Sequence record: NC_054924.1
Length of the DNA stretch: 64,000 nt
Strand: one strand, 5' to 3'
Source of the DNA: Escherichia phage vB_EcoM_Lutter
The notes under the pieces were generated by a model that saw only the letters and a program-made list of their open reading frames with translations, was not told the origin of the DNA and ran no database searches. This document shows, piece by piece, positions 16,685-23,527 of this stretch. Made by a program: the position numbers and the translations under genes. Numbering within the stretch: the first letter of the stretch is position 1; every line of letters starts with the position of its first letter.

Positions 16685-18781
16685 TTATCCTTGAACGAAC
16701 TTGTAAGGCATGTTTGCAATATCTATGCAAGACGCAATAATTCCAAGAGATGATTCTACTTTCTGTTTAACATTTGATGAAACAAATGATGCAAAGTCAA
16801 CTCTGTCTTCTATTTCAATATCACCTGTCATTGCAACCAATTCACCAGTTTCCATTAAATGGTCTCCATCATAGATTACCGATTCGGTGAGCTCTTCCGT
16901 GGTCATAACTTCAGCTTGAATGAGTTTTGTATTATTAGATGTTGTTCCGTCATTATTAGAAGCATCAGTTATTTTATTAACTTTGACCATCAATCCACGC
17001 GGTAGAATAACTTCAGCTTCTGTTGCTATTCCGAGACTTCCTGGATATACAACATTAACTTTATGAGCTCCATCAATTGCCCATCCTATTTGAACTTTAA
17101 CGTATTCAGGATTTTCTTTATACGCTCTTATTTCGTTTGGATTAATAGTTATTCCTTCTTCATTTTTATCAACTGTTAATTCATTGCGAGCTTCTGGTTC
17201 TAAAAGACCAATACCAGCATGTGTAATTCCAAAACGTCCAAAAATGATAGGAGTTAAAGAAGTAGATACAAAATTTCTGAAATAGAATACTTTATTTTTA
17301 ACTAGTGCTTCGTATATAGGAGCAGTCATACTTTGAGCACGATAAACTGTAATGCCTTCTGGTATACGATCACCATTTTCAAAAGCAGAATCTAAATTAG
17401 TTATAGCAGCTTCAATTTCTTTTTCACTCATTACTTCATAACGTTCTGGATCATAACGACCCAAAAGAAGATTATTGATGTCAGTATATCCTGAACCGCA
17501 ATACTCTCTAATGCCACGCTTTTGTGATGGAGTATATTTAGAACCATCACGGGCAATAGTAATATCAATCATTGGACCTGCACCAATTCCAGAGAAACTA
17601 TAAATCATTCTTTTGAGGAATTTAGTTTTTGTCGCGTTCCAGGAATTTTTAGTTATTTCTTCCCAGACTTCATCTGGCTGTCCTTTACGGGTTTTATTAT
17701 GTTTATCAAGCCAAGTATCTTTATATTCTTCAAATAATTGATTAACAGCTGCTGCGTATTTCTCTAAACATTTTATTGAAGTAGTCGGTTCATTTTTAAT
17801 CGCATTAAGAATTACATCTTTAATTTTTTCAGAAACTTCATTAACCTCACTTTTTGAAAAGAATTTATAGTCATAATGAAGTTCATCTGCAGTTCCTTCG
17901 GCAATGATTTTTGCTGCCTTAGTTTTAGAAGCTAATGAATTAATTCCAATTTTCATTTCTTCTGCTTCGGGAATTAAAGGTGCAGTAGCTGGTTTATTAA
18001 AATTAGCTGCTGTAGATTCATACTTCTGGAATAATTCACTTTCAAATCTAGAAGACTCTAATGATTGACTTTGTGCAATTGCTCTACGGGAAATTTTAAC
18101 TTTAACGATTACAGCTTGGTCAGAACGTTTATCATTTTCTTGTGCAATAGATGCTGCAATTGCCTCATTTTTAGTTACTTGAGCTCCAGTATCTTTATTG
18201 ATATAAACATCACCGACCTTCGATTCAACTTTAGTAAAGAGCTCAGTACTAATTTCCGGAACCCCTGGAATGTCTTCTAGTGATACATTTTTGCGATGTA
18301 TAAGAATATATGCATACTTTTTATCATAATCCCAGAGTTCCTTAAGAAGGACGTATCTGCCACCTGAACGACTACGGATAAGTCTATCAGCAATAACTTG
18401 AATTTGTCGAGCTTGACCAGCAGTTTTAGACTTAAGAATACGGAGCATACAGGCATCAATTTTATACTGACGCATTGTTTGCATTGCAACAGTAAAAACC
18501 GAATTGATATAATTAATTGGGCTTGGACCAAGACCTTTCAATTTAGCAATTGAACCTTTAGCGGTTAATGTAAAAGGAACAATATGCATCATTTTATCGC
18601 CCATCTTTAAATCGCGATTAGTATCACCTCCAGATGTATAGGTACATAAACGAAAACCTGGTTGTTCAATTGCGTCATCAACATGAACTGAAAAAATTTG
18701 TGGTATTTTCTTCTTTGGATTTAAGTTTGTAATTGGAAGAGTAGTATCTTCGTCAAATAATTCTGTAATTAGTTCCATCAT
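16685..18781 (-). CDS. alt: Alt, virion-packaged ADP-ribosyltransferase
   Basis: 698 aa; sequence and position between gene 54 and gene 30. Confidence 0.85.
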   Translation of the reverse strand: MMELITELFDEDTTLPITNLNPKKKIPQIFSVHVDDAIEQPGFRLCTYTSGGDTNRDLKMGDKMMHIVPFTLTAKGSIAKLKGLGPSPINYINSVFTVAMQTMRQYKIDACMLRILKSKTAGQARQIQVIADRLIRSRSGGRYVLLKELWDYDKKYAYILIHRKNVSLEDIPGVPEISTELFTKVESKVGDVYINKDTGAQVTKNEAIAASIAQENDKRSDQAVIVKVKISRRAIAQSQSLESSRFESELFQKYESTAANFNKPATAPLIPEAEEMKIGINSLASKTKAAKIIAEGTADELHYDYKFFSKSEVNEVSEKIKDVILNAIKNEPTTSIKCLEKYAAAVNQLFEEYKDTWLDKHNKTRKGQPDEVWEEITKNSWNATKTKFLKRMIYSFSGIGAGPMIDITIARDGSKYTPSQKRGIREYCGSGYTDINNLLLGRYDPERYEVMSEKEIEAAITNLDSAFENGDRIPEGITVYRAQSMTAPIYEALVKNKVFYFRNFVSTSLTPIIFGRFGITHAGIGLLEPEARNELTVDKNEEGITINPNEIRAYKENPEYVKVQIGWAIDGAHKVNVVYPGSLGIATEAEVILPRGLMVKVNKITDASNNDGTTSNNTKLIQAEVMTTEELTESVIYDGDHLMETGELVAMTGDIEIEDRVDFASFVSSNVKQKVESSLGIIASCIDIANMPYKFVQG

Positions 18782-18830: not shown

Positions 18831-19019
18831 TTAGTAATCTAGTGGTAAGAGAGTACGATATATTTCAAACTTTGGTCCTTTTTCATAGGCATCAAATGTT
18901 TCTGTAAATTTATTATAAGCGTATGCATCTACAAATTCGAGAATGACTTGTGATACAGAAGTAGAAACATCTCCACCTTCTTTTTGAGCAATGACAATTG
19001 TTTCTAAGTAAGCTTTCAT
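18831..19019 (-). CDS. Hypothetical small protein
   Basis: 62 aa ORF between gene 30 and alt; a hairpin overlaps its 3' end. Confidence 0.45.
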   Translation of the reverse strand: MKAYLETIVIAQKEGGDVSTSVSQVILEFVDAYAYNKFTETFDAYEKGPKFEIYRTLLPLDY

Positions 19020-20479
19020 AGACCAGTTACCTCATGAAAATCACCAAATACATCCTCGAATGTATTAGCTTTAGTTTTATCTTCACGTAAACGAATCGCA
19101 ATCGGAAGAAATAATTTAACGTAATCAGTGCGGCCATCAGATTTTAACCAACCGTTGCATTCGCACTCTAGAATTTTTCCAATATAATAATTTTGGTTTT
19201 CCATAATGCGAGTACGGTCAAGTTCATGTGATTTTACACCGGCTTTATCTTTTAAGCCTGAACCAGCATTTACCTTAATTTTTCCACACTCTGACTCAAG
19301 AATAAATCCACCCGCTTTAGTAGGGTCTTTACGGTGAGGATAAATTCCTACAATTTTTAAATCAACATCAATTACTTCTTTAAATTTATAGAGATTTTTT
19401 GAACGAGCATTTTCCCATAATCCATCGATATTTTTGAGAATAATACCTTCAAGACCTTGGTCAATATACTTTTTATAAATTACCTTAGCTTCATCTAGGT
19501 TATTTACTACCTGGTTTTCAATTAAAATTACTTTATCATAGCCTGATGTCATTTGTTCTAGTTTAGAAAAACGTACATCATATTTTAAACGAAACGCCGG
19601 AAGACCGTATATTTCTACCAACGGGACATAATCCCAGACCTGAAACTTCATGCATTGAGCTTCTTTTTCGGAAATGGTTCCCTTTAAAGATTTATTAGCG
19701 ATTCCATTAGAAGTAGTACGTGATTCAGCTACTTCGGCGAATTCTTTGGCTTTACTAATTTCAGGATAAGCATCAAAAAGAAAATCTAGGCCTTCTGGCT
19801 CCTTTTTAACTTGCTCATGGTATACCAATTCGCCATCAATTAACACGCCTTCTGGATGAATCTGGCGGGCTTCAGCGGTCATTTTGATTAATTCTTCCTT
19901 AAGAAGATCTAATCCTAGATATTCATTACCGGCTCGTGATAAAAGACGAACATCATCTAATTCATCACCTCTGACTTCGGCAAAGCACCGAGCCCCATCA
20001 GCTTTTAACTGGGCAAAGGCTGGAAATTTGATATTCTTATTAATGCCTTTTTCATCATAAGAACTTGCCAGCATTTGAGGTTGTTCAGGAATTAAACCTG
20101 GCCAAACTTTGTTTGCAATAGATACTGAAGCACCACATTCAAGGTCTCGCATCATCACTCGACGCAAAACTTCAGCATCATCTTTTTTACCATCGGTGAT
20201 ATATCCAGTTAATTCCTCAATTGCTGCATTTCCAGTCAATTTCCGAGTAGCTAATGTGAATTCAATGAAGTCAAGCATATCGGTAAGAGTCAACATTCCA
20301 AAACCCTGGGTAGCAATACCAGGTTTAGGCCATTTCTTGATATAATACTGCAGCCCACGAGAATAAGTCAGACGATATACTCGTTTAAGCAATTCATTAT
20401 CTTTATTCTTTTCAAGAATTGCTTGCTTCTGCTTAGTTGAACCAATAGATGCTATTTCGTTCAGAATTTTAAGAATCAT
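19016..20479 (-). CDS. 30: ATP-dependent DNA ligase
   Basis: 487 aa; adenylation motif KADGAR; N-terminus MILKILNEIASIGSTKQKQAILEKNKDNELL. Confidence 0.95.
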   Translation of the reverse strand: MILKILNEIASIGSTKQKQAILEKNKDNELLKRVYRLTYSRGLQYYIKKWPKPGIATQGFGMLTLTDMLDFIEFTLATRKLTGNAAIEELTGYITDGKKDDAEVLRRVMMRDLECGASVSIANKVWPGLIPEQPQMLASSYDEKGINKNIKFPAFAQLKADGARCFAEVRGDELDDVRLLSRAGNEYLGLDLLKEELIKMTAEARQIHPEGVLIDGELVYHEQVKKEPEGLDFLFDAYPEISKAKEFAEVAESRTTSNGIANKSLKGTISEKEAQCMKFQVWDYVPLVEIYGLPAFRLKYDVRFSKLEQMTSGYDKVILIENQVVNNLDEAKVIYKKYIDQGLEGIILKNIDGLWENARSKNLYKFKEVIDVDLKIVGIYPHRKDPTKAGGFILESECGKIKVNAGSGLKDKAGVKSHELDRTRIMENQNYYIGKILECECNGWLKSDGRTDYVKLFLPIAIRLREDKTKANTFEDVFGDFHEVTGL

Positions 20480-20745
20480 TGTTCATCCTTCAGAGTTTGA
20501 TTTACAGCTCTATTATAAATCAATTCATCATTAAGCTCAGTTAAAGACCTATGATATGTAGTTCTAACTTTATTTCCTTGCATCCAGTGCTTGATATAAA
20601 TGAAACCTTGCTCTACACATTTTTTAAAAATTCGTTCGTCTTTTTGAGCTCGGAATTCTGGATTGCATCTAAAAAATTGATTTACGTGACCGTAATCACG
20701 TGTAGTATTACCTTCATTTTCATAAATAGTGTGAACAACAAACAT
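20476..20745 (-). CDS. Hypothetical protein (30.1-like)
   Basis: 89 aa ORF, overlapping stop/start with neighbours. Confidence 0.55.
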   Translation of the reverse strand: MFVVHTIYENEGNTTRDYGHVNQFFRCNPEFRAQKDERIFKKCVEQGFIYIKHWMQGNKVRTTYHRSLTELNDELIYNRAVNQTLKDEQ

Positions 20746-21584
20746 TAGAATGCTCCTTGGAAAATATTATCACCACAAGTAGGTCTATTATACAAATACT
20801 CTATACCGCCGGGTTTAATATAGTTCCATGTCTGAAACGGATGTGTCTGATATGGATGATATAGATGATTATAAGGATTAAATCCAGGAGTTCTCCAGGT
20901 AGTGTTCCAACGAAAAGAATCGTTTTTAATCATCTTTTCAATTACATCTTTTATAGCTTTTTCACTATCAAAACTTTCTTTATTTTCCTTTGGTGAAAAA
21001 AGCTTATTCTCTACATCGTTCCATGTATAAACTCGCTGAGCAGTTTTTGGAATACTGTCACGTTCCCCTCGAGCCATCCAATAAACAGGAACACTTAATA
21101 TTTCACTCGCGTGATCGCAGTGGTGAGCGAGATCGTCAATATAACAAATTACGTTATATTTCTCTTTTGCCTTTTTGAACAACTCTTCTTTTGAAGAATC
21201 ATGACCACACATCAGTACTTCTGAGAAGGCACCAGGAAAAAGAGCATTCAAATTAAATTGACGATTCAGCAGAGCGTCAATAGAATCACCCAGCGCTGTA
21301 ACAGCTACAAAATTATAATCTTCTTTTAATTTGTTAATTACACACAGAGCATCTTTATATGGAGACAAGTAACGAATAAAATCTGAACGATTGTATTTTT
21401 CAATTAACTTGACACCAAGTTCTTCATCACAATTAAAAAGTTTACCAGGAGAAATAAATTTTTCATCTTGGATCATTTTTAAAATATGTTCCAACGGAAG
21501 ATTATATTTCTGAGCAAAATAAGGAAGGCCTGATTGCCAGCTTAAACACACTCCATCAATATCAGTTAAAATAGTAGGCTTCAT
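20745..21584 (-). CDS. Putative HAD-superfamily hydrolase-like protein (30.2-like)
   Basis: 279 aa; N-terminal ILTDIDGV resembles HAD motif I (DxDG). Confidence 0.5.
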   Translation of the reverse strand: MKPTILTDIDGVCLSWQSGLPYFAQKYNLPLEHILKMIQDEKFISPGKLFNCDEELGVKLIEKYNRSDFIRYLSPYKDALCVINKLKEDYNFVAVTALGDSIDALLNRQFNLNALFPGAFSEVLMCGHDSSKEELFKKAKEKYNVICYIDDLAHHCDHASEILSVPVYWMARGERDSIPKTAQRVYTWNDVENKLFSPKENKESFDSEKAIKDVIEKMIKNDSFRWNTTWRTPGFNPYNHLYHPYQTHPFQTWNYIKPGGIEYLYNRPTCGDNIFQGAF

Positions 21585-22045
21585 AGAGAGTCTCTTAATA
21601 GGTTTAACACATCAATAAATTCAGCTTCGGTTAGTATTGTATCATCTTTTGTTAGACCACTAGCCATGCTGTGCTTCAAAACTTTTCCTTTCGAGGCTTG
21701 TAATGCATCACGAAAGCCCTTGTTTTGGATCGCTGCTTCAAAATATGCATTTGTGTATAATTCTTTCCACGCCGGGGAGTATCTTGAAAATGGAACTCCA
21801 AGCCAGAAGAGGGTTCCACGGTCCTGAGCTCTTGCATAAGACCTTCCAGCTTGTTGGGCGGCAAGCCCGGATAACCCAAATATACGACGTTGTTGTTCAA
21901 CGTTTTTCACCTTGCATCCTTGGAGGAATCCTTCAAGACCTCCAAATTGAATACCATCCATAACGAAAGGCCATTGGGCGAAATTACTTAATGCACATGA
22001 TGGCCACCTAAAATTGCTTCTAATCTCTAACTCAGACATTTTCAA
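21581..22045 (-). CDS. YbiA/NADAR-like (DUF1768-like) protein (30.3-like)
   Basis: 154 aa; segment LSNFAQWPFVMDGIQF...EGFLQGCKV resembles the YbiA/NADAR core as I recall it. Confidence 0.5.
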   Translation of the reverse strand: MKMSELEIRSNFRWPSCALSNFAQWPFVMDGIQFGGLEGFLQGCKVKNVEQQRRIFGLSGLAAQQAGRSYARAQDRGTLFWLGVPFSRYSPAWKELYTNAYFEAAIQNKGFRDALQASKGKVLKHSMASGLTKDDTILTEAEFIDVLNLLRDSL

Positions 22046-22761: not shown

Positions 22762-23139
22762 TTAAATATCAAATTCGTTAAGAACTACATCAAAGATTGC
22801 TTCCAAGTGCTCAGGTTTAGCTTTGTTACTCAGAATATGACGAATCCAAGTTTTAACTAAGAGTTTACGATTAGCACCATTCCAGCAAGGATGAGTCCCT
22901 AAATCACGTTGACGGAAATCATCATCCAGAGCGATTTTAAAGTTGGAACCTTCCATCGTGATTGAAACCGTGATACCGTTTTCAAATCGCATATAAACGT
23001 AGTTAGGAGTCATATACTGTTCGATTTCGCATACTGATCCATTTTGATGTTTCCAAAGGCAGATGGTATCAATAGAACCTGCAATACCATTAGAAACATA
23101 TTTACGTTCAAAGTTAATGTAGTTCATTTTATTCTCCAA
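22762..23139 (-). CDS. Hypothetical protein
   Basis: 125 aa ORF preceded by an early promoter. Confidence 0.55.
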   Translation of the reverse strand: MENKMNYINFERKYVSNGIAGSIDTICLWKHQNGSVCEIEQYMTPNYVYMRFENGITVSITMEGSNFKIALDDDFRQRDLGTHPCWNGANRKLLVKTWIRHILSNKAKPEHLEAIFDVVLNEFDI

Positions 23140-23194: not shown

Positions 23195-23527
23195 TTATTT
23201 TACTACTTTCCAATGCTGCATGTCAAGTTTACCAACTTTTTTCATCTTCTCAATTAAGCGTTCGGCACGTTGGCGAGCTGTAACATAATACCATTCACCT
23301 AATTCATTTTGTTCAATTTTTCCAACGATTACTGTATTCAATTCATAAATCCAACCAGTAAAGAAATTATGAACTTGAATTGTAAAGGTGAAATCTGTTC
23401 CCATACCTTCTGTTGTTTCTACTTCAATGATATCACCTTCAACTGCCATTAAGAACCACATAGTTTCATCATATTTACCATTGAAGCATTTAGTTTTAAC
23501 TGTAGCGTTCAGATTAATCGTTTTCAT
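23195..23527 (-). CDS. Hypothetical protein
   Basis: 110 aa ORF preceded by an early promoter. Confidence 0.55.
   Translation of the reverse strand: MKTINLNATVKTKCFNGKYDETMWFLMAVEGDIIEVETTEGMGTDFTFTIQVHNFFTGWIYELNTVIVGKIEQNELGEWYYVTARQRAERLIEKMKKVGKLDMQHWKVVK

Follow-up and report, generated by a model that had tools for sequence, protein, structure and literature searches.

Gene 30.3 and its reading frame

The window analysed here is a stretch of 64,000 nucleotides from Escherichia phage vB_EcoM_Lutter (NC_054924.1). It carries, on its minus strand, a counterpart of gene 30.3 of phage T4, now called adfN, whose product has the features of a NADAR-fold ADP-ribosylglycohydrolase. A first-pass annotation made from the letters alone had described an open reading frame (ORF) of 154 amino acids at this place and likened it to YbiA and the NADAR family. 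The minus-strand ORF at 21581..22045 (154 amino acids from a TTG codon) is present and holds the string quoted at that time, LSNFAQWPFVMDGIQFGGLEGFLQGCKV. The length, by contrast, probably has to be shortened to 152 amino acids, as the most likely start is the ATG at 22039 rather than the TTG at 22045. We prefer this ATG because T4 gene 30.3 is annotated with the same start and length, because the DNA is co-linear with T4 across the whole gene, and because the published catalytic residues are then numbered E36 and K43. In the T4 reference sequence (NC_000866), gene 30.3 is a 459 nt coding sequence whose ATG matches window position 22039. The features of the gene are as follows.

21581..22039, minus strand: adfN (gene 30.3) coding sequence, 152 amino acids plus stop, for a predicted NADAR-fold DNA ADP-ribosylglycohydrolase
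22040..22045, minus strand: two added codons, TTG AAA, with which the mechanical ORF begins; probably outside the translated protein (T4 annotation; E36 and K43 numbering)
22032..22039, minus strand: junction with the upstream 30.4-like ORF, whose stop overlaps the adfN start (ATGTCTGA), read from the sequence
21581..21584, minus strand: junction with the downstream 30.2-like ORF, whose start overlaps the adfN stop (ATGA), read from the sequence
21932..21934, minus strand: Glu36 codon, catalytic glutamate (the distal ribose contact of ADP-ribose in NADARs), assigned from its invariance, YbiA E48 and the published E36A mutant
21911..21913, minus strand: Lys43 codon, catalytic or ligand-binding lysine, assigned from its conservation, YbiA K55 and the published K43A mutant
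21671..21673, minus strand: His123 codon, last-strand marker of the phage gp30.3 clade of NADARs, assigned from its invariance and the alignment with YbiA E125
21665..21667, minus strand: Met125 codon (Ile125 in T4), the sole amino acid difference from T4
21587..21628, minus strand: C-terminal α-helix, residues 138-151, from the AlphaFold2 secondary structure and the full-length identity with T4

The overlaps at both junctions, 30.4/adfN and adfN/30.2, make translational coupling likely at each.

The protein is identical to T4 gp30.3 (NP_049816) at 151 of 152 positions (99%), the only change being I125M. Met and Ile are both common at this position in the alignment of 68 family members on which the conservation counts below are based, and phages teqskov and JEP6 carry identical 152-amino-acid proteins. 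The product matches the Pfam family PF08010 (Phage_30_3) along the whole profile (positions 1-138 of 138), scoring 235.2 bits (E = 2.3e-70) where the gathering cutoff is 36. PHROGs assigns it to phrog_652, for which no function is given there. Many Tequatrovirus (T4-like) phages share 98-99.5% identity with the 2.8 kb around the gene, and by its sequence the window is part of a Tequatrovirus genome. The gene order is that of T4: 30.4-30.3-30.2-30.1-30-alt.1-alt. All nine nucleotide differences from T4 within the gene fall on third codon positions of the 30.3 frame and eight of them are synonymous, which points to this frame as the one under purifying selection. Compared with its T4 counterpart, AdfN of Lutter is thus alike in length, gene order, start and stop overlaps, E36/K43/H123 and the C-terminal helix, and differs by I125M and eight synonymous changes; with one of the eight, the ATG of the ORF annotated in T4 as 30.3' is lost.

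This internal, out-of-frame ORF maps to 21676-21903 on the minus strand, within adfN. Where T4 has its start codon, Lutter reads ACG, which leaves the amino acid of the 30.3 frame unaltered. The same nine differences produce six amino acid changes in the 76 codons of the 30.3' frame, compared with one in the 152 codons of the 30.3 frame. Given the lost start and this excess of replacements, 30.3' gives no sign of being a conserved protein.

Profile, structural and active-site evidence for a NADAR fold

Membership of the protein in the NADAR superfamily (YbiA fold) is supported by profile comparisons, a predicted structure and the residues of the active site. By its profile match the protein sits in PF08010, which is called the sister Pfam family of PF08719 (NADAR, DUF1768). 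A search of a collection of 5.8 billion proteins recovered 104 homologues, all 104 of which belong to PF08010 and several of which are named as YbiA/DUF1768-family proteins by JGI. Eight of the 68 family members match PF08719 by themselves (best E = 1.5e-7). When the family profile was used in an hmmsearch of the PDB, E. coli YbiA (2b3w) was found with E = 0.005, and an hhalign comparison of that profile with the YbiA sequence gave a probability of 93.9% (E = 1.6e-7). The likeness to YbiA and NADAR proposed in the first-pass annotation is borne out by these comparisons and by the structural matches.

An AlphaFold2 model was computed from an alignment from which the T4 row had been left out, and reached a predicted local distance difference test (pLDDT) of 93.1 and a predicted template modelling score (pTM) of 0.88. 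A Foldseek search of predicted viral structures with this model returned gp30.3-like phage proteins first and then dozens of proteins named NADAR. Across the family, no variation occurs at E36 or H123, and conservation of K43 is at least 90%. The counterparts of E36 and K43 in the aligned YbiA sequence are E48 and K55. The hhalign alignment ends at K122, paired with V124 of YbiA, and hence places H123 opposite YbiA E125. All three putative catalytic residues, whose loss the first-pass annotation had named as a sign of mistaken assignment, are therefore present. The C-terminal helix (residues 138-151) is intact as well, as the protein is full length and free of frameshifts relative to T4, and the helix is predicted with high confidence.

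Domains of the gp30.3 type are widespread: with clustering at 50% identity, about 1,673 clusters match at E up to 1e-3. Some are fused to other domains, including a GDSL lipase, a prolipoprotein diacylglyceryl transferase (Lgt), BspA-type leucine-rich repeats and a FtsW/RodA-like membrane domain, and one protein (P0105) has three stretches that match the gp30.3-type domain. The fusion partners show no coherent theme that would bear on mechanism.

Published functions of gp30.3 and the predicted role of the Lutter protein

De Souza and Aravind (2012), as cited in later papers (PMC11543638, PMC11125620), recognized proteins of the gp30.3 type as the phage branch within the NADAR superfamily. The marker of the branch is a histidine in the last strand, where the YbiA family has Glu and the BC4488/DarG1 family has Asp (PMC11543638, PMC11125620). 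NADARs hydrolyse guanine-ADP-ribose and serve as antitoxins of DarT1 (Schuller et al., 2023; PMC11543638), and the gp30.3 NADAR of an E. coli phage cleaves guanine-ADP-ribose and not thymidine-ADP-ribose in vitro (Cihlova et al., 2024; PMC11125620).

The resistance of T2 and T4 to DarTG1 was subsequently mapped to gene 30.3, which was renamed adfN for anti-DarT factor NADAR (Johannesman et al., 2025, Nat Commun; PMC11825919). According to the same study, adfN is necessary and sufficient for the resistance of both phages, and T4 and T2 without it form no plaques on DarTG1 cells. When supplied ectopically, adfN rescues RB69, whose frameshifted allele has lost the last helix; this C-terminal helix is needed for full activity. 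The activity of AdfN-T4 is lowered by E36A, by K43A and by the RB69-type truncation, and purified AdfN strips ADP-ribose from DarT1-modified DNA where the E36A mutant does not. AdfN showed no two-hybrid interaction with DarT1, and DarTG2 is not countered (PMC11825919). In a transposon screen of 2025, T4 could do without adfN on K-12, and insertions in the gene were lost only when DarTG1 was present, the one condition that made it essential (bioRxiv 10.1101/2025.11.20.689424).

The present analysis establishes, for the Lutter gene, its orthology with T4 gene 30.3, the fold, the catalytic residues and the intact C-terminus. From the 99% identity with T4 we infer that the Lutter protein would also hydrolyse guanine-ADP-ribose on DNA and protect the phage from DarTG1, and the I125M allele very likely acts like the T4 protein. 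The gene is thus, with little room for doubt, adfN: a stand-alone NADAR-fold ADP-ribosylglycohydrolase of 152 amino acids, in the gp30.3 clade, that reverses the guanine marks set by DarT1. Lying in an operon-like block of 30.x genes and ligase, it would presumably be co-expressed with that block. In a host with DarTG1, the DarT1 toxin would ADP-ribosylate guanine of the phage DNA and block its replication; AdfN would hydrolyse the bond between ADP-ribose and guanine, restoring unmodified DNA on which replication could go on. The enzyme is expected to act without binding the toxin and to leave thymidine-ADP-ribose, the product of DarT2, as it is. Of the two functions that the first-pass annotation had guessed, counter-defence is upheld, as the T4 orthologue defeats DarTG1, and nucleotide salvage is disfavoured by the invariant His and the DarTG1-specific phenotype.

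Several observations weigh against this assignment. The protein itself has no match to PF08719, even at E up to 1, so that the HMM (hidden Markov model) comparison suggested at the outset fails for the single sequence and succeeds for the family profile and for relatives. Neither the NCBIfam search nor the defence and DarG models of PADLOC gave a match to the protein, and a single-sequence phmmer search of the PDB found no NADAR, the only result being a spurious ATP pyrophosphatase (E = 0.6). NADAR is out of range for direct searches with the one sequence, and the link needs profiles or structure. The substitution I125M stands two residues past the catalytic His123. As for the T4-type enzyme in general, the gp30.3 NADAR gives no rescue from DarT1 toxicity in uninfected cells (PMC11125620), the rescue of non-T-even phages by AdfN-T4 is weak, and the enzyme is fully effective only during T-even infection. 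Since rescue fails in uninfected cells and is weak in non-T-even phages, AdfN alone would not be the whole mechanism, and a further T-even factor is suggested.

Comparison with other NADAR systems

Besides T4 AdfN, the described systems closest to the Lutter gene include DarG1 (BC4488 family), a NADAR that is the antitoxin linked to DarT1 and for which the G. lovleyi structure 8bat is available. In contrast to DarG1, no DarT toxin gene stands beside adfN, whose neighbours are the 30.4- and 30.2-like ORFs and whose nearest ADP-ribosyltransferase is Alt. The adfN product also lacks an N-terminal extension (the domain begins at residue 3 of 152), has His123 instead of the last-strand Asp and, in the case of AdfN-T4, is unable to serve as an antitoxin in uninfected cells. 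E. coli YbiA (PF08719; 2b3w) is about 20-24% identical and has Glu125 where the phage protein has His123; it is a housekeeping N-glycosidase encoded in a LexA-controlled operon (PMC11125620). AdfN-Bas32 and AdfN-Bas60, from T5-like and Vequintavirinae phages, are likewise phage NADARs that counter DarTG1 by guanine de-ADP-ribosylation. They belong to other NADAR clades and represent independent acquisitions and, unlike the T4-type enzyme, they are active without T-even infection.

Genomic neighbourhood

The genes around adfN that were recognized in the window are these.

16685-18781, minus strand: Alt-type ADP-ribosyltransferase (PF03496)
18831-19019, minus strand: alt.1 (PF24647)
19016-20479, minus strand: ATP-dependent DNA ligase (PF01068)
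20476-20745, minus strand: 30.1 (DUF3045)
20745-21584, minus strand: gp30.2-like ORF, 279 amino acids, whose start overlaps the adfN stop (ATGA)
22762-23139, minus strand: 30.7 (PF06919)
23195-23527, minus strand: 30.8 (PF06019)

The ligase and Alt genes that the first-pass annotation had named as neighbours were both recovered by the Pfam scan. As in T4, adfN lies upstream of the ligase gene, with two genes between them, and about 2.8 kb from alt; the tight packing of genes continues through 30.1 into the ligase gene. A T4-like contig with a 30.3 copy of only 57% identity preserves the block 30.3-30.2-30.1-lig-alt. We leave a transcription unit unclaimed because promoter and terminator sites are no more frequent than in shuffled sequence: a scan of 18.5-26 kb found 23 sites compared with 27.7 expected from shuffled sequence, which is no excess. 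Neither tRNA genes nor Rfam families at gathering score were found in the 64 kb window (1-64000).

Across the Straboviridae, gene 30.3 tends to occur within blocks of DNA-metabolism genes. It directly adjoins the DNA ligase gene in phage Phi1, lies upstream of 30.2 and ligase in Acj61, and in KVP40 closely precedes, on the upstream side, the genes of the gp47/gp46 recombination nuclease. The Alt ORF of Lutter has 698 amino acids, compared with 682 in T4 (a 2,049 nt coding sequence), and a divergent T4-like contig (L008) likewise has an Alt of 698 amino acids.

Alternative explanations

The alternative that survives best is a broader one, which we consider possible and advance tentatively. AdfN may be an eraser that is indifferent to the toxin, and its natural targets may include the marks of other guanine-directed DNA or RNA ADP-ribosyltransferases (ScARP-, pierisin- or YarT-like). 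This plausible reading would extend the assignment to DarT1 marks, and is compatible with it. The guanine-ADP-ribose on which the phage NADAR was assayed had been made by ScARP and not by DarT1 (PMC11125620), and it has been remarked in print that the glycohydrolase works whichever toxin has set the mark. The size and variety of the family (about 1,673 clusters, some of them fusions, and 1,509 phage records from many host genera) fit a broad role, but DarTG1 is the only target shown so far in vivo and DarTG2 is not countered. The window itself offers no pointer in either direction.

The place of the gene near alt could be explained if AdfN reversed or tuned the phage's own ADP-ribosylation by Alt, ModA and ModB. 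An Alt-type enzyme (PF03496) is indeed encoded downstream, on the same strand and about 2.8 kb away, and the block from 30.3 to alt persists in the contig with the 57%-identical copy. Alt-type enzymes, however, modify protein arginines, whereas the NADARs that have been tested act on guanine-ADP-ribose in DNA. This explanation also sits poorly with the dispensability of adfN on plain K-12 and its requirement only with DarTG1, with the lack of an annotated alt within 2.5 kb of 30.3 in Phi1, KVP40 and Acj61, and with distant homologues that have no ADP-ribosyltransferase neighbour. We therefore regard it as very improbable.

Hardly any weight can be given to a housekeeping role like that of YbiA, as an N-glycosidase acting on reactive intermediates of the riboflavin pathway, or to another form of nucleotide salvage. 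The last-strand Glu of the YbiA family is replaced by an invariant His, the published phylogeny places gp30.3 nearest to DarG1-type NADARs and not to YbiA (PMC11825919), and the sole phenotype that has been found is specific to DarTG1.

Just as improbable is a decayed, non-functional allele as in RB69: truncated or fused gp30.3 fragments do occur in several T4-like phages and in metagenomes, besides the RB69 frameshift, but the Lutter copy is complete and shows no frameshift against T4, eight of its nine differences are synonymous, and it retains both the catalytic residues and the C-terminal helix, so that only a loss of activity through I125M could revive this idea.

The fragments themselves take several forms. 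In one protein (P0014) the N-terminus of gp30.7 is fused to the C-terminal half of gp30.3, and in another, from phage RPN226 (P0051), the N-terminus of gp30.8 is fused to the last 50 residues of gp30.3. A protein of phage NR1 (P0016) is a frameshift product that begins in the 30.3' frame, and two further forms of gp30.3 (P0007 and P0013) are truncated at the N- or C-terminus. Loss of the catalytic half by deletion inside the 30.3-30.8 block seems to recur, in a manner akin to the RB69 frameshift.

A candidate partner encoded next to adfN

If AdfN-T4 works with an additional T-even factor, that factor might be encoded by a coupled neighbour, either gp30.4 (68 amino acids, upstream) or gp30.2 (279 amino acids, downstream). 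We consider this improbable, though a little less so than a role in the phage's own ADP-ribosylation; if true, the locus would be a small multi-component module for de-ADP-ribosylation and not a lone enzyme. The gp30.2-like ORF begins MKPTILTDIDGVCLSW, which contains a motif I like that of HAD phosphatases (TDIDGV; DxDGV type). No Pfam match to gp30.2 was found even at E = 10, and no NCBIfam-type or PDB sequence match; the protein falls in a PHROG that lacks an assigned function. Its single-sequence AlphaFold model is unusable (pLDDT 34.5). One GenBank record (H30) names a gene at the gp30.2 locus 'phosphatase'.

The likely coupling and the adjacency of 30.3 and 30.2 persist in the T4-like contig with the 57%-identical copy and, nearly, in Acj61. 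The adjacency was not seen in Phi1, in KVP40 or in distant metagenomic phages, and the protein encoded downstream of a distant jumbo-phage 30.3 homologue is unrelated to gp30.2. As a conserved partner of AdfN, gp30.2 was rejected in view of Phi1 and KVP40, where the genes are not adjacent, and of the missing domain match; it is kept as a lead of low probability.

Implications

Publications of 2012, 2023, 2024 and 2025 already describe the gene with its fold, chemistry and biological role; the Lutter copy adds one conservative residue change. Homologues are present in 1,509 GenBank phage records from many host genera, and most of them are labelled 'hypothetical protein'. The practical value of the assignment lies in the annotation of those gp30.3 homologues that still bear this label. 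An intact adfN predicts that a phage would resist DarTG1-type defence, which may be useful in the choice of therapeutic phages and in the interpretation of host range.
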